The notes below the pieces were generated by a model that worked only from the letters and a program-made list of their open reading frames with translations, searched no databases and was not told where the DNA came from. From an uncultured Planctomycetales bacterium (GTDB lineage Bacteria; Omnitrophota; Gorgyraeia; Zapsychrales; Fredricksoniimonadaceae): 64,000 nt of DNA. The position numbers were made by a program, and so were the translations under genes. Of this stretch, positions 4,652-44,049 are shown piece by piece; position 1 is the first letter of the stretch; each line of letters opens with the position of its first letter. The stretch lies in contig CAZNDZ010000001.1 in assembly GCA_964572155.1 (NCBI GenBank), forward strand, positions 1,274,786 to 1,338,785, read 5' to 3'.

Positions 4652-4700
4652 GGTTGACATATGTATATATCCATGATATACATTATTGTATGGATATTTA
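4652..4700 (+). promoter_or_regulatory. putative sigma70 promoter (TTGACA-17-TATACA) with an inverted-repeat operator atatccat…atggatat upstream of the brnT-brnA-like operon
   Basis: Read directly: ttgacatatgtatatatccatgatatacattattgtatggatat. Confidence 0.4.
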
Positions 4701-5004
4701 CTCAACATTGACAAATTGTGAAGGCTTTCAGTGGGATAAAGGTAATAATTTAAAAAGTTGGCTCAAGCATCATGTATCTGAAAGGGAGGCTGAGCAGGTA
4801 TTCTTTCATGAGCCATTATTAGTGGTGATTGATGAGAAGCATTCGCAATATGAAACTAGGTTTAGGGCAATGGGGTACACAGATAGGGGTAGATATTTAT
4901 ATATTGTATTTATGATTAGGGATAATTTGATTCGAGTGATATCTGCAAGAAGTATGAATGAGAAAGAGAGAGTGGTCTATGAAAAGTTTAAAACCGATGC
5001 CTAA
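4690..5004 (+). CDS. brnT: BrnT-family toxin (DUF497) of a type II TA module
   Basis: FQWDKGNNLKSWLKHHVSEREAEQVF… matches the BrnT/DUF497 signature; 4-nt-overlapping downstream RHH partner. Confidence 0.7.
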   Translation: MDIYSTLTNCEGFQWDKGNNLKSWLKHHVSEREAEQVFFHEPLLVVIDEKHSQYETRFRAMGYTDRGRYLYIVFMIRDNLIRVISARSMNEKERVVYEKFKTDA

Positions 5005-5248
5005 GTTTAAGACAGAAAAAGAAGAAAAAAAGTTTTGGCTGACACATGATTCCACAGAATATGTCGATTGGTCAAAAGCTCGCAAGGTTGTTTTTCCTAA
5101 TTTAAAACCAACCTATAAAAGTATTTCGTTGCGCCTATCAGCTTCAATGTTAGATCAGATCAAAGTTTTGGCAAATAAAAAAGATGTGCCATATCAGTCT
5201 TTAATGAAAGTTTACTTAGCTGAGAAAGTAAAAGAAGAATTGGCTTAA
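4979..5248 (+). CDS. brnA: BrnA-family antitoxin (CopG/RHH-like)
   Basis: …ISLRLSASMLDQIKVLANKKDVPYQSLMKVYLAEKV matches BrnA antitoxins; likely start MKSLKPMP at 4979. Confidence 0.65.
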   Translation: MKSLKPMPKFKTEKEEKKFWLTHDSTEYVDWSKARKVVFPNLKPTYKSISLRLSASMLDQIKVLANKKDVPYQSLMKVYLAEKVKEELA

Positions 5249-5315: not shown

Positions 5316-8300
5316 ATGTTCAAGTCTTTAACTCATATTGGGCTAGCCCTAGCCCTAATTTTACCCCCATGGCCATTAACACATGCGCCAATCATCAAAC
5401 CATCATCAAATCTCTCATCAGCGACGATACCTGTGCTTGATGGTCAGCGTATAACACCCACAAGACCATTAATCTTTTCAGACACACTTAACGGTTTGAA
5501 TGTCACAACGACGATCACGCAAACTCAACAGCAATTAATTCAAGAAGTGCAGATGACTGGTTCAAAAGAGTCCGTACATTTCCGATTGATTCTCATTCCT
5601 AATGAATCAGAAGAATCATTCCTGCGTAGCCAAACACCTAAGTATTTGGCGAAGCAGGATGAATTTATCTTTTCACAAAAAATTCAAGATAATAAGATTT
5701 TAACCAAAGAATTAATTAATACTAAAACTCCAAATACAAAAAGCGGTAGTATTTATACTTGGCGATTGCTGACGGATGATCCTTTGGTAATGATGGATTT
5801 ACAAAGCACATCGGATGGCGGAGCGGATATTATTCGGGTGTTTGACGAACAACGTATTATCGTAGCGCATATTAAGCCTTTTATCTATTGGACAAAAACC
5901 CATCACCAAAAGGTAGCGGCAATCCAATTATCTAAAGATGCTTTGCAGAATTCTGTCATAGAATTATTAATCCATGAAGATCCAAGTGCTTATCCGTTAA
6001 CAATTGACCCTTCAATTGCATATGGCCAATGGTTGGGGGATGGAACTACAATAACAACTCGTGTTTTGGCTATAGCACTTGAACCTGTAACAGGAGAAAT
6101 ATATGCTGGCGGTTCAGCATCAGGGGTGATGGCAAATATTGGCACCATGGTAGGCACATTTAATGGTGAGACAAATGGCTTTGTTGTTGAAATAATAGGG
6201 GGTAATCCGCCGGCTATCAATTGGTATCATGATCTTGATGGTGCAGGGAATGATACAGTTCTAGCATTGGCTGTAAATGGTGATGAAATTTATGCGGGGG
6301 GGTATGCTAATTCATCAGATTCATGGGATAGCGCAGGATCAAATGTGGGTACAATGACTAATTCTGGTAATCCTGGAGAAGGGTTTATTGTTGAAATTGC
6401 GGATGGCGCGTCACCTACATTAAGCTGGCATATGTGGTTAGGGGGTGTTGGAGGTGATGCTGTTCGTGCTTTATCTATTAATGGCGATGAAATCTACGCA
6501 GCAGGAAGCAGTAATTCATCAGATTCATGGGATACCGCAGGTTTAGAGTTAGGCACATTGACCAATACATCTAACGAAGGCTTTGTTGTAGAAATTGCGG
6601 ATGGCGCGCCGCCTACGATCAATTGGCGTATGTGGGTGGGAGGGGAGGGCAGTGATATAATTTATGCGTTAACTATCAATGGTGATGAAATTTACGCAGG
6701 TGGATCTTCTACTTCAACAGGTTCTTGGGAAACATTAGGATCAACAGTTGGGACATTAACCAATACATCTGCCGAAGGCTTTGTTGTAGAAATTGCTGAT
6801 GGTGCGCCGCCTTCTATCAATTGGTGTATGTGGGTTGGTGGCGTTGGAATTGATATGGTTTATAGTTTAGCGGTTAATGGTGATGAAATTTATGCAGGAG
6901 GATATACTGATTCTTCTGCATCATGGGATACGGCAGGGTCGACGTTTGGAACTGTGACAAACACATTGACTAATGGTGAAGGCTTTGTGGTCGAAATAGC
7001 CGATGGTGGCCCGCCAACCTTGAATTGGCGCATGTTTATTGGTGGCAGGTCAGCTGAGATTATTAATGCTTTGAGTGTTAATGGTGATGAGATTTATGCC
7101 GGGGGGTATAGTAATAATTCAGCCAGTTGGGATACTGTTGGATCAACAGTTGGAACTCATACAAATAGCGCAACATCAGAAGGCTTTGTTGTAGAAATTA
7201 CGGATGGTAGTCCGCCTTCTTTAGCTTGGCGTGCGTGGATTGGTAATAATTTCACTAATAGTGCTGTTAATGGGTTAGCTATTAATGGCGATGTAATTTA
7301 CGCAGGCGGGTATACACAAGTTGGGACATTCAATTTGATGGAGACATTTACGGTTATTTCTGGTGCCGACACTCAGGGTCCTGGATGGATTGCACAATTA
7401 GATGATGCTGGTCCTCCAACTTATTACTGGTTACAGGCTTTTGGTGGAATTGGATCTTCTGCTGTGCGAGGAGTAGCGGTTAATGGGGATGAGATTTATG
7501 CAGGAGGGGAGGCATATTTGCAGAGTCCGGGTACTTTTTTTGAAGTTGGGACTGCGAACAGTCAGTTTTATGAAGCCTATGTTGTAGAAATTGCGGATGG
7601 CAGCACACCGTCCATAGTTTGGCGTATGTGGCTAGGGGGATCTGGGTATGATTTTCTTCGTACTTTAATAGTTAATGGCGATGAAATTTATGCGGGGGGG
7701 TATGCTAATTCATCAGATTCATGGGATACCGCAGGATCAAATGTGGGTACAATGACTAATTCTGGTAATCCTGGAGAAGGGTTTATTGTTGAAATTGCTG
7801 ATGGATCTCCACCTTCTTTGACATGGCGTATGTGGTTAGGTGGCGTTGGAAGTGATGTGGTTTATAGTTTAGCGGTTAATGGTGATGAAATTTATGCCGG
7901 GGGGTATACTGATTCATCAGATTCTTGGGAAACTGCAGGATCAACAGTGGGGACATTGACAAATACATTGGCTACTGGTGAAGGATTTGTGGTAGAAATT
8001 GCTGATGGATCTCCACCTTCTTTGACATGGCGTATGTGGTTAGGTGGTGTTGGAAGTGATGCGGTTTATGGTTTAGCGGTTAATGGTGATGAAATTTACG
8101 CAGGTGGATTTTCTAATTCATCAGATTCTTGGGATACTGTAGGATCAACAGTTGGGACATTGACCAATACATCTAACGAAGGCTTTGTTGTAGAAATTGC
8201 TGATGGTGCGCCGCCTTCTATCAATTGGCTTATGTGGGTTGGTGGTCTTGCACAAGACCAGGTTCGTGTTTTAAGTATTAATGGTGATGAAATCTATGCG

Positions 8301-8849
8301 GGTGGCACAACAACTTCATTATCCAGTTGGGATACCGCAGGATCAACAGTTGGAACATATGGAAGTACAGGTCAAGAAGGCTATATATTAGAAATCGCCG
8401 ATGGAGGACCACCAAATCTTGATTGGCTTATGTGGATTGGGGGTGATGGCGCTGATTATGTATTTACTTTAGCTGTTAATGGTGATGAAATCTATGGGGG
8501 TGGTGAGTTCAATTCATCCGATTCATGGGATACCGCAGGGTCTGAGTTGGGGACATTTACAAATTCAGGGACTTTCAGTGCATATATTGTAGAAATTGCG
8601 GATGGCGCGCCACCTTCGTTGACATGGCGTATGTGGATAAGTAGTGCTGGGTCTGACGCTGTATTAAATTTAACTGTTAATGGTGATGAAGTTTACGCAG
8701 GGGGGGTGATATCTTCATCTTCGCAGGGCCTTGAAGGGGTTTATCAAGGCACAAGATACGATTCTTCATCTGCTGCGTTTATTGTTGAGATTGCGGATGA
8801 TGCGACGGCGGCTAGTGTCAATGCATTGTTTTTTGGGACTGGGTTTTAA
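5316..8849 (+). CDS. secreted SBBP-like beta-propeller repeat protein (~16 tandem ~65-aa repeats)
   Basis: Signal peptide; repeated unit W-MWLGG-GSD-VY-LAVNGDEIYAGGYS-SSDSWDT-GSTVGTLTN-EGFVVEIADG-PPSL resembles the SBBP (PF06739) beta-propeller repeat; ~195-nt DNA periodicity with several near-identical copies. Confidence 0.75.
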   Translation: MFKSLTHIGLALALILPPWPLTHAPIIKPSSNLSSATIPVLDGQRITPTRPLIFSDTLNGLNVTTTITQTQQQLIQEVQMTGSKESVHFRLILIPNESEESFLRSQTPKYLAKQDEFIFSQKIQDNKILTKELINTKTPNTKSGSIYTWRLLTDDPLVMMDLQSTSDGGADIIRVFDEQRIIVAHIKPFIYWTKTHHQKVAAIQLSKDALQNSVIELLIHEDPSAYPLTIDPSIAYGQWLGDGTTITTRVLAIALEPVTGEIYAGGSASGVMANIGTMVGTFNGETNGFVVEIIGGNPPAINWYHDLDGAGNDTVLALAVNGDEIYAGGYANSSDSWDSAGSNVGTMTNSGNPGEGFIVEIADGASPTLSWHMWLGGVGGDAVRALSINGDEIYAAGSSNSSDSWDTAGLELGTLTNTSNEGFVVEIADGAPPTINWRMWVGGEGSDIIYALTINGDEIYAGGSSTSTGSWETLGSTVGTLTNTSAEGFVVEIADGAPPSINWCMWVGGVGIDMVYSLAVNGDEIYAGGYTDSSASWDTAGSTFGTVTNTLTNGEGFVVEIADGGPPTLNWRMFIGGRSAEIINALSVNGDEIYAGGYSNNSASWDTVGSTVGTHTNSATSEGFVVEITDGSPPSLAWRAWIGNNFTNSAVNGLAINGDVIYAGGYTQVGTFNLMETFTVISGADTQGPGWIAQLDDAGPPTYYWLQAFGGIGSSAVRGVAVNGDEIYAGGEAYLQSPGTFFEVGTANSQFYEAYVVEIADGSTPSIVWRMWLGGSGYDFLRTLIVNGDEIYAGGYANSSDSWDTAGSNVGTMTNSGNPGEGFIVEIADGSPPSLTWRMWLGGVGSDVVYSLAVNGDEIYAGGYTDSSDSWETAGSTVGTLTNTLATGEGFVVEIADGSPPSLTWRMWLGGVGSDAVYGLAVNGDEIYAGGFSNSSDSWDTVGSTVGTLTNTSNEGFVVEIADGAPPSINWLMWVGGLAQDQVRVLSINGDEIYAGGTTTSLSSWDTAGSTVGTYGSTGQEGYILEIADGGPPNLDWLMWIGGDGADYVFTLAVNGDEIYGGGEFNSSDSWDTAGSELGTFTNSGTFSAYIVEIADGAPPSLTWRMWISSAGSDAVLNLTVNGDEVYAGGVISSSSQGLEGVYQGTRYDSSSAAFIVEIADDATAASVNALFFGTGF

Positions 8850-8876
8850 AAACCGTGACACATTGGGTTTATAAGG
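8848..8876. repeat. direct repeat copy 1 (aaaaccgtgacacattgggttt + ataagg) flanking the DUF433/DUF5615 cassette
   Basis: Exact 22-nt match to 9560-9582. Confidence 0.7.
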
Positions 8877-8929
8877 TTGTCTTTAATGTGCGGTTGACGA
8901 GGGATGTTTGCCGTGTTAAACTTATTCTT

Positions 8930-9166
8930 ATGACTGAACAAACAATGCATAACTACATTACTGCTGACCCAAAAATTTGTTTCGGGAAACCTGTGTTTAA
9001 AGGTACTCGTATTGCTGTTTATTTGGTTCTAGAGTTGTTAGAAGCAGGGGTTACTGTTAAAGAAATCATCAGCGCGGATTATTATCCTAATCTAACGATG
9101 AAACATGTCCAAGCTGCACTACATTATGCTGTTCGTACAGCTCAAAACCAACACTCCTTTGTGTAA
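8930..9166 (+). CDS. DUF433 domain protein (putative antitoxin)
   Basis: ITADPKICFGKPVFKGTRIAVYLVLELLEAGVTVKEIISADYYPNLTMKHVQAAL is the canonical DUF433 signature; internal start at 8930. Confidence 0.7.
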   Translation: MTEQTMHNYITADPKICFGKPVFKGTRIAVYLVLELLEAGVTVKEIISADYYPNLTMKHVQAALHYAVRTAQNQHSFV

Positions 9167-9504
9167 TGCGTTTTATTGTTGATGAAAATATTCCAAGATT
9201 GCTTGTTATAAAATTGATTGAGCTAAAGCATGATGTCGTCCTTGCTCAACGTAATAAATCAGATATGGCAATTGCTCGGAAAGCTTTAACAGAAAAACGC
9301 ATTATCTTGACGTTAGATAAAGATTTTACAAATATAATCTTATTTCCTCCATCAAGGTTTAACATACTTTGTGTCGATATACACCCGCCAGAAAAGAACG
9401 TGATTACAAATACTGTGATTGATTTTATTGCAAAGATCAAACCATCCAACTTTAAAGGTCTGATTATTTTGAGCAAAGATGGGTATATTCGGCAAACAAA
9501 GTAA
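9166..9504 (+). CDS. DUF5615 (PIN-like) protein, partner of DUF433 (putative toxin)
   Basis: MRFIVDENIPRLL…; abuts the DUF433 gene (stop/start share one base), the standard DUF433-DUF5615 pairing. Confidence 0.65.
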   Translation: MRFIVDENIPRLLVIKLIELKHDVVLAQRNKSDMAIARKALTEKRIILTLDKDFTNIILFPPSRFNILCVDIHPPEKNVITNTVIDFIAKIKPSNFKGLIILSKDGYIRQTK

Positions 9505-9520
9505 GACAGAATTGTTTAAG

Positions 9521-9540
9521 ACCGCAAATTGCGGTTTTAA
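9521..9540 (+). terminator. weak hairpin (accgcaa-a-ttgcggt) followed by TTTT after the DUF5615 gene
   Basis: Read directly; short AT-poor loop, modest stem. Confidence 0.3.
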
Positions 9541-9559
9541 AAAAGATTCTACGATGCAG

Positions 9560-9588: not shown

Positions 9589-9650
9589 AACTTTGAAGGT
9601 TATATAATTTTTGAAAATGTTTGATGAATTTGGTAGTATTAATCAGTGTT

Positions 9651-9728
9651 AACCGATTCCCCAAATCGGTCTAGTTTGCATGTGTAGTGAAATCCCCCGA
9701 AACTTAGGTTGAGTGTTTTTATTAATTT
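9651..9728 (+). promoter_or_regulatory. conserved upstream element copy A: 7-bp-stem hairpin with CCCCA loop, 19-nt gap, AAATCCCCCGAAACT box, T-rich + ATTAA
   Basis: Paralogous to 38573-38646. Confidence 0.5.
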
Positions 9729-9748
9729 CTTTATGTAGGGGGTAAACT

Positions 9749-10021
9749 GTGCAAATTAAGAAACGTGTTACTAAAAAATCTGCTGTGCTTTTTCCTGTAG
9801 AAATAATTCAAAGTAAGATTTATCTAATCCGTGGACAGAAAGTGATGCTTGATAGGGATTTGGCGGAGTTGTATGGTGATTCGGTGAAACGTCTTAAGCA
9901 ACAGGTTAAGCGAAACTTAAAGCGTTTTCCGGGCGATGACTTTATGTTTGAATTGACATGGGAAGAGACCGAATCTTTAAGGTCACAATTTGCAACCTTA
10001 AAAAGAGGCAAAAACAACTGA
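9749..10021 (+). pseudogene. ORF6N-domain (KilA-N-related DNA-binding) protein, truncated after ~90 aa; GTG start with AGGGGG RBS
   Basis: IRGQKVMLDRDLAELYGDSVKRLKQQVKRNLKRFPGDDFMFELTWEE…RSQFATLKRG is the ORF6N N-terminal motif; full-length members continue well beyond the point where this ORF stops. Confidence 0.5.
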
Positions 10022-10806: not shown

Positions 10807-10992
10807 ATGATATCGATTAAGAAAAAAATGACAAAGATTATTGATGAACAGCCAGAAGATAGTTCTTATGAAGAGATTTTAAAAGAATTGGCTTTCGAAC
10901 GTATGGTTGAAAGAGGGTTAGCAGATTCTAGATCAGGAAAAACAGTTTCTGATGCACAATTAAAGAGAAGGATTAAATTGTGGCAGAAATAA
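10807..10992 (+). CDS. small antitoxin-like protein (addiction-module component) upstream of the ParE-like toxin
   Basis: 61 aa, acidic N-terminus; 13-nt overlap with the RelE/ParE gene. Confidence 0.5.
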   Translation: MISIKKKMTKIIDEQPEDSSYEEILKELAFERMVERGLADSRSGKTVSDAQLKRRIKLWQK

Positions 10993-11282
10993 GATGGACA
11001 AAAGAAGCAGAGAGTTGGCTTAAAGATATACATGATTATATTGCAACTGATAACCCGCGCGCTGCGATGAAAGTAGTTGAATCGATTTACGATAATGTGC
11101 AGTTATTAAAGAAACAACCAAACATAGGGCATCGTTATCATCGATATGCTCAAATAAATATTCGCGTCTTACTTCATGGTCATTATCGTATTGCGTATTT
11201 AATTAAAGATGATGAAAATATTGATATCTTGGGAGTGTTTCACGGATCTTTAGATATCGATCGGTATTTATTTACGAATTAA
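10980..11282 (+). CDS. RelE/ParE-family type II toxin
   Basis: …RWTKEAESWLKDIHDYIATDNPRAAMKVVESIYDNVQLLKKQPNIGHR…YRIAYLIKDDENIDILGVFH is the typical ParE-like pattern. Confidence 0.7.
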   Translation: MAEIRWTKEAESWLKDIHDYIATDNPRAAMKVVESIYDNVQLLKKQPNIGHRYHRYAQINIRVLLHGHYRIAYLIKDDENIDILGVFHGSLDIDRYLFTN

Positions 11283-38572: not shown

Positions 38573-38646
38573 ACAGTTTCCCCCAAAACTGTATAAAATT
38601 ATCAATATATTCAAATCCCCCGAAAACTCATTTTTTTATTAACTTG
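38573..38646 (+). promoter_or_regulatory. conserved upstream element copy B: 7-bp-stem hairpin with CCCCCA loop, 20-nt gap, AAATCCCCCGAAAACT box, T-rich + ATTAA
   Basis: Paralogous to 9651-9728 with compensatory stem changes. Confidence 0.5.
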
Positions 38647-38700
38647 AAAACGCCCATTAATGTGATACAATTGTATATACAAATGGGTTAGAAGGGGAAT

Positions 38701-38970
38701 ATGGATAGAATTCGCTTCAGCCCAATTAAAGATTTTCTAATAAAGCAGAAATATGGCGTCTCATTTGAAGATGTATTAAGTGGTGAATTGGTTGATGAAA
38801 TTGAACATCCAAAGAGAACTAATCAGAAGATATTGATTTTTGAATATAAGAATTACCTTTGGTCGATTCCATTTGTAGTTGAACACAAGGGGATTTTCTT
38901 GAAAACACTGTATCCTAGTCGTAAATTAATGAAACGATACAAAAGAGGAAAAAATGATAAAGAAATATAA
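38701..38970 (+). CDS. BrnT-like (DUF497) toxin, second copy of the family
   Basis: …KQKYGVSFEDVLSGELVDEIEHPK…ILIFEYKNYLWSIPFVVEHKGIFLKTLYPSRK matches the BrnT pattern; overlaps downstream RHH gene. Confidence 0.55.
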   Translation: MDRIRFSPIKDFLIKQKYGVSFEDVLSGELVDEIEHPKRTNQKILIFEYKNYLWSIPFVVEHKGIFLKTLYPSRKLMKRYKRGKNDKEI

Positions 38971-39208
38971 TTTATCCAAATATGAGCAATCTATTGAAAA
39001 CACTATTGATGAATACGTTCCTGTATCTAGAGCTAAGTTTGAAGCAACGAAGAAAATGTTCGAAGCTAGAAAAAAGAATGCTGTTTTAAATATTAGAATC
39101 AATCAAGGTGATTTAGATAGTCTTAAGGACAAAGCAAAGAAATTAGGTGTTAAATATCAAACTTTTATTACAGAAATCCTTCATAAAGTAGCCATCACAG
39201 GTGAATAA
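38954..39208 (+). CDS. BrnA-like RHH antitoxin
   Basis: …[33 protein letters not shown]…. Confidence 0.55.
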
Positions 39209-39419
39209 CCAAATCCACAATCCAGATCCTCTGCACGGCGTAACCCTCGAGATGATCCTCACCCGACTGGTAGAAAAGTATGGGTGGGAGGGGATGTATA
39301 ATCATGTTAAGATCAATTGTTTTCAAAAAGACCCAAGCATCAAATCAAGTCTAACTTTTCTTAGAAAAACACCGTGGGCCAGAGACAAGGTCGAAACCTT
39401 GTATCTTAAAACCTTTTGA
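39201..39419 (+). CDS. DUF2132 (VF530-like) protein
   Basis: [21 protein letters not shown]…[26 protein letters not shown]. Confidence 0.6.
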
Positions 39420-41015: not shown

Positions 41016-41156
41016 ATGAAGATCACTACTTTAACGATCATACTATTAATAGGCATCTTTACATTTTCTCAATTGGCCCAAGCAAAAGGGCGAACTGGGA
41101 GTCATCGGACTTATCATGGTCATGGGAAGGGGAGTTTCTATAAGGGTGGAAAATAG
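41016..41156 (+). CDS. small secreted peptide (46 aa): signal peptide + Gly/His/Lys/Tyr-rich 23-aa mature region
   Basis: AAAAGGAG RBS 6 nt upstream of ATG; MKITTLTIILLIGIFTFSQLAQA|KGRTGSHRTYHGHGKGSFYKGGK; not in ORF track (under 60 aa). Confidence 0.4.
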   Translation: MKITTLTIILLIGIFTFSQLAQAKGRTGSHRTYHGHGKGSFYKGGK

Positions 41157-41172
41157 GGAATGGAGTTTCAAT

Positions 41173-41658
41173 ATGTTTGAACAATTCAGAAATCATCCAG
41201 AATTGAAATGGAATGCTTCTCCAGCTGGACAATTCTATTCAGACGCTGATAGGTTGAATATAAATATTAATTTGAAAGATTTCACTCTAGAAAGAATAGT
41301 TGATTTAAGAGAACAGGTTGAGAATGAGGGCTCTGCTAAGCTAATGTTAATTGGAAGCAGTAACACAAATATATTTGTATATGGTCCAAATAATTTAATA
41401 AATCTTTTGTATCATACATTACAGAGATACAAGGCAAGATTCTGGTCCAAAATAATTAATATTACTTTAAACGATCATCAGAATTGCGCTAACTTGTTAG
41501 TTCCTACGAAATGTGATCCATGGGTTATTGATAAACTTGAATTAAAAGAGATGAAGAGGGGGGCGGTTACGCCATGCACTACTACTTCCGATTTAGAAAA
41601 AATTTATGAAATATGTGTTCATTGTGAGAATTTTTTAAAAGAAAGGGATCTTCGTTAA
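41173..41658 (+). CDS. hypothetical protein, first large gene of the TIR cassette
   Basis: No recognisable domain; track ORF starts at 41116 but would overlap the peptide gene, so an internal start (41173) is assumed. Confidence 0.45.
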   Translation: MFEQFRNHPELKWNASPAGQFYSDADRLNININLKDFTLERIVDLREQVENEGSAKLMLIGSSNTNIFVYGPNNLINLLYHTLQRYKARFWSKIINITLNDHQNCANLLVPTKCDPWVIDKLELKEMKRGAVTPCTTTSDLEKIYEICVHCENFLKERDLR

Positions 41659-41666
41659 GGTCTAAA

Positions 41667-42554
41667 ATGGAAAAAATATTTCAGTATGATGTAACCTTAA
41701 GTTTTGCAGGCGAAGATCGTAAATATGTAGAGCAAGTTGCTCAAAAACTCAAGGCGCAAGAAATTAAAGTTCATTATGATGAATTTAATGAAATTGATGC
41801 TTGGGGGAAAAATTTACCAGAAAATTTTGACCGTATCTATCGAAAAGACTCTCGTTTCTGTGTCATGTTTATTTCCGGAGACTACGCTAAGAAAGCTTGG
41901 CCCACCTTTGAAAAAAGAAGCGCTTTAGACCGAGAAGTTATCGAAAATGGTTATATTCTTCCAGCTCGTTTTGACGATACAGAAGTTTTAGGAATTCCGC
42001 CTTCCAAGTCTTATATTGATCTTCGTAAATATAGCCCTAATGAATTCGCTGAACTGATTATTAAAAAAATAAGTAAGACTCAATCAATAAAAAATGTGTT
42101 TGAAACAACAGCTTTTCGCCGTCCCAAGATCACCAAATCATTCGATCCTTATAAAGAATCACAAGTTTGGGTAGAATATCTGATTAAAGAGTTAGAGAGT
42201 CGTTGTGAAGATTCAGGAATATCTTTTAGTCATTTTCTTCGCGATGGTAAACAATGTTTAAGATTTGTAATTAACGGCAAACCTGTTTATTCCATTAATA
42301 TTAAATCAGGCTCTCTTTATTTGGACCAAGGATTAAGTTTTAGTTATGCGCATGGAGAAATGTCAGCAATTCTAGATGGCATTAATGCATTTGGTGAATT
42401 TGATTGGAATAAAGACAGGGAATGTATAGTTTTAAAACTTAATGATTTTAGTGTTTTTTCTCGGTCATCTAGCGAACGGCAAGAATTTACGAAACTAGAA
42501 TTTCTTGATTACATTTGGGAAAAAGTTTGTAACGCCACAGAAGAAAAAATGTAA
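41667..42554 (+). CDS. TIR-domain protein with unknown ~150-aa C-terminal domain
   Basis: YDVTLSFAGEDRKYVEQVAQKL…IKVHYDEFNEIDAWGKNL…SRFCVMFISGDYAKKAWPTFE closely follows the DVFLSFRGEDTR … S-x-NYA-S-WCL-EL TIR pattern. Confidence 0.75.
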   Translation: MEKIFQYDVTLSFAGEDRKYVEQVAQKLKAQEIKVHYDEFNEIDAWGKNLPENFDRIYRKDSRFCVMFISGDYAKKAWPTFEKRSALDREVIENGYILPARFDDTEVLGIPPSKSYIDLRKYSPNEFAELIIKKISKTQSIKNVFETTAFRRPKITKSFDPYKESQVWVEYLIKELESRCEDSGISFSHFLRDGKQCLRFVINGKPVYSINIKSGSLYLDQGLSFSYAHGEMSAILDGINAFGEFDWNKDRECIVLKLNDFSVFSRSSSERQEFTKLEFLDYIWEKVCNATEEKM

Positions 42555-42613
42555 GGAAAGACTCCCCATATTAATGAGCAGCTCTTACATAACTAATAAG
42601 AAAATCTATTTAA

Positions 42614-43372
42614 ATGTACCCTAAGCATTTTTTTGAACAATTTTGGGAATCTGAACAACGAAATGAATTATTTGTTTGTATGCCATTTCATAGTTCTTTA
42701 AATTATCGTTTTAACCAAGTAATTAAAGTCGCTGCTAAAAAGGCAGGTTTCGATAACGCCATAAGAGTTGACGAGGATACCTCAGGAAATGTAATAATCA
42801 CAAAAATTTTAGATGGAATTGCAAATTCAAAAATGGTTTTAGTTGATTTATCAGACGATCCAAGTTGCAAAGAACGACATGTAAATGGAAATGTTTTATA
42901 TGAAGCAGGTATCGTTCATGCTATTAGAGAACCTGATGCATTAATAATTGTACGAGATCAAGGTCCTGAAGGTGTCGATTTTGATATTCGAGGATTTACA
43001 ATTAATACGCCGCCTAATAATGTTATTGAAGAAAAATGGTTGATTGAATTATTGAAGAATAGTCTAGAAAATTATCAATGGTTTATTGGAAAGCGAATAA
43101 AGTCTACGGCAGAATTAATTGATGATATTAGTTTGCTTCTTATGGCTAAATATGGAGGTGATAAGAATACTTCAACACATTTTAATAGTGCTAATATGGA
43201 TGCAAAGTATAAGATATCTATTATGAGGCTTTTAGAATTAGGAATTTTAAGATTTCAAACTGCAAGAAATAATAACCCTTTAGAGCATGCTTATCATTGG
43301 ACTGATTTTGGTTATGAAGTAATGAAATATCTTCACATAGAAAGGCAAAATCCTGGTATTCGCTTATCATGA
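42614..43372 (+). CDS. nucleoside 2-deoxyribosyltransferase-like / SLOG-class Rossmannoid domain protein with unknown C-terminal domain
   Basis: LFVCMPF… then …MVLVDLSDDPS…NGNVLYEAGIVHAIREPDALIIV mirrors the NDT (PF05014) signature ADLSG…NPNVMYELGYAHALGKPV. Confidence 0.55.
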   Translation: MYPKHFFEQFWESEQRNELFVCMPFHSSLNYRFNQVIKVAAKKAGFDNAIRVDEDTSGNVIITKILDGIANSKMVLVDLSDDPSCKERHVNGNVLYEAGIVHAIREPDALIIVRDQGPEGVDFDIRGFTINTPPNNVIEEKWLIELLKNSLENYQWFIGKRIKSTAELIDDISLLLMAKYGGDKNTSTHFNSANMDAKYKISIMRLLELGILRFQTARNNNPLEHAYHWTDFGYEVMKYLHIERQNPGIRLS

Positions 43373-44049
43373 CAACATTAGAAATAATTGATAATGTTAA
43401 AGAGCGTGGGTGGACATTTCGCCAAAGATTTAAAGGGAAAAGTAATAAAATCCTACTTATTTTTTCAAAAAGAAGTGCCGAAGATTATGGAGAAAGGAAT
43501 TGTGTGAATTTTTATGCTCTTAAAATCGATCACGCAAATAGCTATTCTGATATTTATTTTAAATATGCAATTACAGCGAGTGCTTTAGCTACACAAAAAA
43601 TAGCAGATATAGTAGGTGATCCTGAAGCTTATATTATTAATTCCGGCTTGTTTCGTTTTAAAAAATTATTAAAAGATAGCGATGAAGTTCGTAAGTTCCC
43701 TGATTTATTGCTGAGTAGCGATTCTTCTGAATCGGAATATGCTATAGATTTACTTCAAGGATTAGATATAGAAATAAATAGAGTACGTTTTGAAGTCCTT
43801 GATTTTTTAAGACGTAATAAATATTTGGGTAGAGAATCATTAAATCTTATAGAGATTGCAGATGTGATTTGTTCAGACCAAACTATAGTTGATACCGTTT
43901 ATCGTGACTTTGAAGAAAATGGCCTTATTAAAGGAGCTTACGGAAATAAAGGTGTAAAAATTACTGTAGAAGGTGAAAAATATTTAGAAAAAATTAAAAA
44001 TGAGCAAATGGGTATAAACTTTGGTTCAGAAGGAACCCATAAATGGTAG
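43369..44049 (+). CDS. hypothetical protein, last gene of cassette (start overlaps previous stop)
   Basis: No recognisable domain; C-terminal region could be wHTH-like. Confidence 0.45.
   Translation: MTTLEIIDNVKERGWTFRQRFKGKSNKILLIFSKRSAEDYGERNCVNFYALKIDHANSYSDIYFKYAITASALATQKIADIVGDPEAYIINSGLFRFKKLLKDSDEVRKFPDLLLSSDSSESEYAIDLLQGLDIEINRVRFEVLDFLRRNKYLGRESLNLIEIADVICSDQTIVDTVYRDFEENGLIKGAYGNKGVKITVEGEKYLEKIKNEQMGINFGSEGTHKW

Follow-up and report, generated by a model that had tools for sequence, protein, structure and literature searches.

A C-rich hairpin-and-box element shared by ORF6N and BrnT-like/CopG genes: candidate core of a portable leader that sequesters the ribosome-binding site

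The staphylococcal small RNAs RNAIII and RsaE carry C-rich (UCCC) loops that act in trans as anti-Shine-Dalgarno sequences against G-rich ribosome-binding sites. The preQ1-I riboswitch is a small element that sequesters the Shine-Dalgarno (SD) sequence and has a hairpin with conserved loop cytosines, and the PemK motif is an Rfam leader motif found before toxin genes. In the aapA3/IsoA3 system of Helicobacter pylori, hairpins in the 5' UTR of the type I toxin mRNA sequester the SD sequence (PMC6733600). Cis sequences of that leader pair with the SD in more than one anti-SD copy, and the message is left untranslated. T4-type phages possess regulatory cassettes called PeSL (promoter-early stem-loop), in which a strong sigma-70 promoter and a terminator stem-loop are repeated before accessory ORFs in hyperplastic regions of the phage genome (PMC2839356, PMC4122927). 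The attC sites of integrons, located 3' of the cassette ORF, measure 55-140 nt; each is an imperfect palindrome that has RYYYAAC/GTTRRRY cores and contains extrahelical bases.

Here we describe an element that would work similarly to these systems and belongs to a different family from all of them. It occurs twice in the window, by which we mean the whole 64-kb stretch of DNA that was analysed, a compact bacterial chromosome segment of 40% G+C with several type II toxin-antitoxin pairs (Table 1). One copy, el1, lies downstream of a DUF5615 gene and its terminator-like palindrome and upstream of a truncated ORF6N gene. The other, el2, precedes a BrnT-like/CopG cassette, and its hairpin begins 30 nt past the stop codon of a DUF167/YggU gene. 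The distance from element to start codon is 22 nt in el1 and 55 nt in el2. A first-pass annotation had located the two copies at 9651-9728 and 38573-38646 and had described a common order of hairpin, spacer, box and U-rich segment; direct reading confirmed all of this.

As in the aapA3/IsoA3 leader, sequences of the element would pair in cis with the SD, and more than one anti-SD copy is present. That system, however, is of type I, with a peptide toxin, an antisense RNA antitoxin and family-specific leaders, whereas the module described here is shared by unrelated genes, those of a type II BrnT-like/CopG system and of an ORF6N DNA-binding protein; no antisense RNA is evident here, and there is no sequence similarity. 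With PeSL it has in common that short composite modules (promoter, stem-loop, SD) stand before unrelated small accessory ORFs and undergo modular exchange. PeSL stem-loops, in contrast, are G/C-rich transcription terminators that overlap or adjoin the promoter in phage genomes, whereas here a weak A/U-rich stem without a U-tract is combined with a conserved C-rich loop and C-box on a bacterial chromosome. The resemblance is functional and is not one of membership: a promoter-like site is adjacent in some copies only, the stem-loop is not terminator-like, and none was found in the viral contigs examined. The likeness to attC sites lies in a conserved structure with variable sequence, adjoining small promoter-poor cassette genes that are often toxin-antitoxin pairs. 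Membership was rejected here as well: the stems are perfect and of 6-8 bp, with no cores and no bulged bases, no integron integrase is nearby, and the element is linked to the downstream gene, with which it stays while the upstream gene changes (L098 versus L099, below). The C-rich anti-SD motifs of RNAIII and RsaE are alike, but here the motif would act in cis, on the target's own leader. Like preQ1-I and the PemK motif, the element is a small hairpin with loop cytosines before an SD that would be masked, or a leader tied to toxin genes; at 70-120 nt, its hairpin stands much farther from the SD than that of preQ1-I does, and it shows no evident ligand pocket. Mechanistically the element is of a known kind; as an RNA motif it is new, and unusually portable.

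Table 1. Coordinates of the two elements, their neighbouring features and the toxin-antitoxin pairs of the window
Feature	Position	Strand	Basis or remark
BrnT/CopG pair	4654-5248		
DUF433/DUF5615 pair	8855-9504		
el1 candidate sigma-70-type promoter, TTGAAA-17-TAGTAT, TG two bases before second hexamer	9611..9639	+	consensus match
el1 hairpin P1, ACCGATT / loop CCCCA / AATCGGT	9652-9670 (5' arm 9652-9658, 3' arm 9664-9670)	+	read directly
el1 variable spacer, 19 nt	9671..9689	+	position between P1 and C-box
el1 C-box AAATCCCCCGAAA, proposed anti-SD sequence	9690-9702	+	exact box shared with el2
el1 U-rich segment TTTTTATTAAT	9716-9726	+	common to el1, el2 and L103
el1 G-rich SD, GGGGG	9738-9742	+	read directly
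Truncated ORF6N gene	9749-10021 (GTG start 9749-9751)	+	downstream of el1
ParE pair	10807-11282		
el2 hairpin P1, ACAGTTT / loop CCCCCA / AAACTGT	38573-38592 (arms 38573-38579, 38586-38592)	+	read directly
el2 variable spacer, 20 nt	38593..38612	+	read directly
el2 C-box AAATCCCCCGAAA	38613-38625	+	same exact box as el1
el2 U-rich segment TTTTTATTAAC	38633-38643	+	similar to el1 segment
Toxin-antitoxin cassette's own promoter, TTGAAA-16-TACAAT, TG before second hexamer	38644..38687	+	consensus match
Palindromes over cassette promoter: TACAATTGTA; CCCATT/AATGGG	38666-38675; 38653-38658 and 38682-38687		outside the shared module
el2 G-rich SD, GGGG	38694-38697	+	read directly
BrnT-like/CopG pair	38701-39208		
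BrnT-like toxin gene	38701-38970 (ATG 38701-38703)	+	downstream of el2
CopG-like antitoxin gene	38954-39208	+	follows BrnT-like toxin gene

Several other features of the neighbourhood deserve a brief description. The terminator-like palindrome after the DUF5615 gene spans 9512-9544 (inverted repeat I2) with a 29-nt core at 9515-9543. A second 29-nt palindrome, 72% identical to this core, lies at 9976-10004 inside the ORF6N gene, where it codes for ESLRSQFATLK. It directly precedes the truncation point, at which ...LKRG is followed by KNN and a stop, and where homologues have EHIKYLPYAFTEQG; the truncation may have originated in an event at this palindrome. The closest ORF6N homologues (P0058-P0176) are 78-158 aa long and very variable, and their C-terminal ends differ, so that the subfamily either undergoes frequent truncation or frameshifting or represents a short ORF6N-only form. 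Upstream of the DUF433/DUF5615 pair, a 1177-aa protein (5316-8849) consists of about 20 tandem repeats of about 50 aa (motif ...VNGDEIYAGG...SWDTAGS.VGT.TN...GFVVEIADG.PPS..W), and its GG codons are the source of most G-runs in the window. The 89-aa BrnT-like protein has no Pfam match of its own, and its BrnT-likeness is recognized only through distant homologues that carry PF04365/DUF497. As listed, a VF530-family ORF (39201-39419) and the CopG antitoxin gene have 8 nt in common at the end of the latter, so that the right edge of the cassette meets the next gene without a spacer. Just past this cassette, an islet at 41116-44049 contains a TIR_2-domain protein (41667-42554) and two ORFs without a Pfam match, and a protein at 42614-43372 has a weak match to CAP12/Pycsar-type TIR; the islet may be a defence islet.

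Within the window the two copies stand out. The exact 13-nt box AAATCCCCCGAAA occurs twice, against 0.00 expected from 100 shuffles, and a U-rich 13-mer, TTTTTATTAAYTT, also twice, against 0.09 expected. On both strands together, the window has just three perfect hairpins that combine a stem of at least 6 bp with a CCCC loop, and two of them are those of el1 and el2. The stems of el1 and el2 had been reported to differ and yet to pair perfectly, and this is borne out: two of the seven positions differ, and both differences are compensated. Outside the shared blocks, the intergenic regions of el1 and el2 allow no alignment.

Contigs encoding close homologues of the two downstream proteins were fetched, and together with one locus from a metagenome scan they yielded seven further copies in unrelated environmental contigs, four before close ORF6N homologues and three before close BrnT-like/CopG homologues. 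The nine-copy set thus comprises an ORF6N type (el1, L053, L102, L103, and L191) and a BrnT-like type (el2, L098, L099, and L101), and in all nine the module is upstream of the gene and on its sense strand. The three closest BrnT-like/CopG cassettes all carry it. L098 and L099 (71% identity) have the hairpins TCCGAT-UCCCC-ATCGGA and ATCCGAT-CCCCA-ATCGGAT with the box AAATCCCCCTGAAAAA, and L101 (65% identity) has AAATCCTT-CCTCC-AAGGATTT with the box AAATTCCCCCAATAAA. On the ORF6N side, the closest homologues with the module sit in quite different neighbourhoods. Their hairpins and boxes are ATCTTT-CCCCC-AAGGAT and AAATTCCCCCAAGG in L102, ATTTGAT-UCCCC-ATCGGAT and AAATTCCCCAAAA in L103, and AATCTGATT-UCCCC-AATCAGATT and AAATCCCAAATAG in L191. 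The metagenome locus L053, also before an ORF6N homologue, was recovered by a structure-aware rescan of all fetched loci. Near-identical YjbQ proteins and the BrnT-like homologues come from sources that name them Candidatus Omnitrophica, which makes the organism of the window a probable member of Omnitrophota.

The combined hairpin-plus-box pattern is essentially confined to module sites in the approximately 1 Mb of fetched loci. A genome-wide pattern search, proposed in the first-pass annotation, was run on a genome and a metagenome collection, from both of which the window's own DNA is absent. The strict pattern gave three matches among species-representative genomes (the window's own genome not included), all without a hairpin, and the relaxed pattern gave 81 matches in the metagenome collection, of which one, L053, was genuine after hairpin screening; most of the remaining ones represent a single recurrent gut-bacterial locus. 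The module was found in none of 80 viral ORF6N-encoding loci, and two module-derived pattern scans of the viral collection returned chance matches only. Near-identical Logan contigs all carry identical elements and are thus uninformative on strain-level polymorphism. The claim that the element is common to two unrelated cassettes therefore holds here and in other organisms, and the possibility that only two copies exist or that additional ones are unpaired is contradicted by seven more copies, all with the hairpin.

Evidence for the hairpin comes from covariation over these copies. In an alignment anchored on the loop, an arrangement that favours pairing, all 54 cells of the six inner base pairs in the nine copies are paired; shuffling of the 3' letters leaves a mean of 33. 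Counted with the pair-counting tool on this loop-anchored alignment, 96.8% of the cells are paired, compared with 61.7% in the shuffles, and 0 of 500 shuffles reach the observed value. Changes on both sides are seen at six of the seven pairs, with up to six pair types at one position, and the covariation score is 1.00 (control, 0.26). Displacing the partner by 1-3 columns leaves 16-55% of the cells paired. L098 and L099 are near-duplicates, so the copies amount to about eight independent ones. The first-pass annotation had taken the compensatory stem change as a sign of selection on structure. Two copies could not establish such selection; the seven further copies do, and the element is conserved with its structure under selection. 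Chance resemblance, or a neutral leftover of one duplication within the genome, would account for the presence of only two copies in the 64-kb window and for strict collection scans that gave almost only chance matches. It is refuted by the excess of the box over expectation and by the covarying stems of seven copies elsewhere, and we give it practically no weight.

The stems of the hairpins contain five G.U cells, which would become C.A mismatches on the opposite strand. This assigns the structure to the sense strand and makes RNA the simplest reading. The P1 loop is C-rich in every copy (CCCCA/CCCCCA, UCCCC, CCCCC, or CCUCC), and the CCUCC loop of L101 is the anti-SD sequence itself. Three options had been offered for the element, an RNA leader, a small RNA and a DNA hairpin. 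These are narrowed towards the RNA leader by its position, always on the sense strand and just 5' of the gene.

The element is coupled to an unusual type of ribosome-binding site. All nine module genes have GGGG or GGGGG 3-7 nt 5' of the start codon. Among the 61 genes of the window, GGGG occurs within 20 nt of the start in two, exactly those that follow el1 and el2. Three BrnT-like cassettes lacking the module (L185, L195, and L197; 53-57% identity) have no G-rich SD and retain only a palindromic promoter, TTGACA...TACAAT, a few bases 5' of the ATG. The C-rich module and the G-rich SD therefore come and go together. This coupling had been overlooked in the first-pass annotation, as had the position of el2 on the 5' side of the toxin-antitoxin cassette's own promoter/operator. 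With only about 14 nt between the -10 and the ATG, the mRNA of the module-less homologues would be nearly leaderless. Module-less cassettes also adjoin a tRNA gene or fragment (L185 2322-2408; L195 1-30), which suggests tRNA-adjacent insertion of the BrnT-like cassette family in other lineages.

Structure predictions are consistent with direct pairing of the two sequences. The C-box pairs with the G-run in all nine copies, both in minimum-free-energy folds and in two consensus folds. Partition functions give a pairing probability of 0.98 for el1, 1.00 for el2, and at least 0.93 in seven of the nine leaders, while the pairing predicted for L103 and L191 is weak (0.22 and 0.31), all values to be read with the caveat that any C-run folds onto any G-run in silico. 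In those seven leaders, removal of the module raises the probability that the SD is unpaired from 0.00 to 0.23-0.60. Mutation of the box in silico shifts the pairing to the hairpin loop in some copies. In el1, the minimum-free-energy structures from RNAfold also predict that the spacer pairs around the start codon (9749-9760). The helix of box and SD does not vary, being C-run with G-run throughout, and for this reason draws its support from co-occurrence and not from covariation. Complementarity to the SD that is maintained in evolution is a feature of the class of SD-sequestering leaders, and it is found here. The chances are, in our view, about even that a portable sense-strand 5' leader sequesters the ribosome-binding site and has this element as its conserved core.

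Masking of the SD alone does not explain the conservation of the AAAU prefix of the box or that of the C-rich loop, since SD pairing needs neither. A trans-acting host factor, be it an RNA-binding protein or a small RNA rich in G, might bind the C-rich loop and the box and so co-regulate the accessory genes, with SD masking secondary or absent. The module subtypes are independent of gene family (el1 groups with el2, L053 with L098/L099, and L101 with L102), as if they tracked a lineage-specific partner. No candidate partner was found, however, the idea that the subtype follows the host rests on one genome with two copies, and the strict coupling to a G-rich SD is more simply explained by cis pairing. 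We regard control by such a factor as unlikely.

If the element is a leader, it should be transcribed together with the gene. Candidate promoters were called as consensus matches, which are at least as numerous in shuffles as in the region; with this limit, sigma-70-like promoters end 11-16 nt 5' of the hairpin in several copies, which favours the RNA-leader option. In the ORF6N type, such sites end 11-12 nt 5' of the hairpin in el1 (12 nt) and in L102 (TTGTCT-16-TATAAT), and consensus scans found nothing comparable in the interval from box to start codon. Provided that the gene is expressed, the module would thus form part of its 5' UTR. In L099, a site TTTACA-16-TAACAT with TG before the second hexamer ends 16 nt 5' of the hairpin.

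The toxin-antitoxin type has a strong conserved promoter between the box and the SD, 28-29 nt 5' of the ATG. This promoter is 3' of the box, so that the module would be present only on longer transcripts, and the main mRNA may never contain it. The cassette promoter and its palindromes are outside the shared module; the promoter recurs in conserved form in L098, L099, and L101 as well as in L185, L195, and L197, which lack the module. The palindromes on it are likely the antitoxin operator. The module itself was rejected as a type II toxin-antitoxin operator: the operator-like palindromes are separate from it (38653-38687), it ends about 20 nt 5' of the -35, and it also precedes ORF6N genes, which have no such promoter.

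The promoter-like sites just 5' of the hairpin in some copies, together with the U-rich run after the box in el1, el2, L102, and L103, might be taken to delimit a stand-alone small RNA of about 70-80 nt ending in the U-rich stretch, or else the element might be the 3' end or terminator of the upstream gene. Both are very improbable. There is no G+C-rich stem before the U-run, and no U-tract behind the hairpin; the el1 element alone folds no better than shuffles (z = -0.23); and the upstream gene differs in every copy, while the downstream gene family and the SD are constant. Scans for terminator-like sites around el1 and el2 found none, and an intrinsic terminator was rejected, the stems being A/U-rich and followed by CUAGUUUG or AUAAAAUU.

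Searches for known RNA families were negative. Rfam 15 gave no gathering-level match in the whole window, and permissive scans of el1 and el2 gave only 14-18 bits, compared with gathering scores of 39-176 bits. Nothing overlapped the module at six other module loci, no family matched any copy even at E up to 1-10, and a tRNA/tmRNA scan returned nothing. A conserved upstream small ORF over the box was also rejected: the short ATG frames of el1 and L098/L099 differ in their phase relative to the box, and el2 and L101 have none. Sigma-54, PmrA-type, dif/Xer, oriT and CRISPR-repeat readings did not fit in spacing or consensus.

Comparison of the copies indicates that the module moves between genes. 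L098 and L099 have the same toxin and share the downstream sequence; the first base of the hairpin is precisely where their homology sets in, the left flanks being unrelated. L101, of the BrnT-like type, and L102, of the ORF6N type, share 34 of 38 bases from hairpin to box, and here both flanks and genes are unrelated. The module of L053 (ORF6N) is closest to those of L098/L099 (BrnT-like), with TCTAACCAAAA in common after the box, and el1 and el2, which reside in one genome, share the exact 13-nt box and the segment TTTTTATTAAY. Module subtypes thus cut across gene families, which points to exchange between the ORF6N and BrnT-like families. In L101 (200-335) and L098 (~1410-1450 and ~1640-1680) the cassettes are flanked by palindromic units, CTGTCATTCTGAGC... 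/ GGATTCCCGCTTTCGCGGGAATGACAG, which look like REP-like intergenic repeats of those organisms.

Sharp boundaries at the hairpin and bases shared between otherwise unrelated loci would also be expected of a junction acting at the DNA level, either a folded hairpin recognized by a recombinase or a patch of homology for cassette swapping like PeSL. As with the attC sites of integrons, the structure is retained although the stem sequence varies freely, and the genes concerned are accessory. Such a junction nevertheless seems improbable. No second site, terminal repeat or target duplication is present at the far ends of the cassettes, where only short repeats at chance level were found around either one, and no recombinase, integrase or transposase is among the called genes of the module loci. 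There are no attC cores, a stem of 6-8 bp is very short by the standards of recombination sites, and the viral contigs matching the two module-derived patterns contained no copy. The coupling to a G-rich SD would also be left unexplained. Homologous exchange at a conserved regulatory patch, on the other hand, is compatible with the leader model and is no true alternative to it. An empty-site comparison through YjbQ orthologues found a different gene order in the relatives L192 and L193, which therefore reveal no insertion boundaries.

For the leader that sequesters the ribosome-binding site, the following mechanism is proposed. The transcript would begin at, or close to, P1, a hairpin of 6-8 bp with free stem sequence and a C-rich loop. 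Next, 5-20 nt 3' of P1, comes the C-box, AAAU(U)C3-5, and the G-rich SD, GGGG(G), lies 33-75 nt 3' of the C-box. The C-box would pair with the G-run of the SD, and the P1 loop could serve as a second anti-SD copy. Pairing of box and SD would close an A/U-rich loop and hide the ribosome-binding site, and translation of the small gene would be throttled. In the ORF6N type, the whole leader would be the 5' UTR of the mRNA. In the BrnT-like/CopG type, the mask would be present only on transcripts begun upstream, whether at a promoter preceding the hairpin or by read-through out of the adjoining gene. The toxin gene would thereby have the module as its translational insulator, while the operator-controlled promoter of the cassette would yield an unmasked message. 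In this scheme we infer the transcription start sites, the pairing in the cell, the repression and the signal that relieves it.

If this model holds, the element is a compact, transferable translational mask that has been adopted by different accessory genes. A toxin, which is dangerous when translated early, would be insulated by it from read-through transcription. Translational control of this sort is well known for type I toxins and is not usually considered for type II systems. The exchange of the module between unrelated genes is a bacterial chromosomal counterpart of the gene-shuffling regulatory cassettes of T4-type phages. Its small size and the clear logic of C-box and G-rich SD make for easy testing with heterologous reporters. 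It is also conceivable, if doubtful, that the hairpin-plus-C-box of about 40-60 nt is a self-contained cassette repeatedly transplanted between unrelated small accessory genes in Omnitrophota-like lineages, tracking its host and not the gene behind it, and read by a lineage-specific trans-acting partner. If true, this would reveal a hidden post-transcriptional regulon of mobile and defence-type genes in an uncultured phylum. Should the leader model hold, the element would be among the very few structured regulatory RNA candidates for Omnitrophota-like uncultured bacteria.
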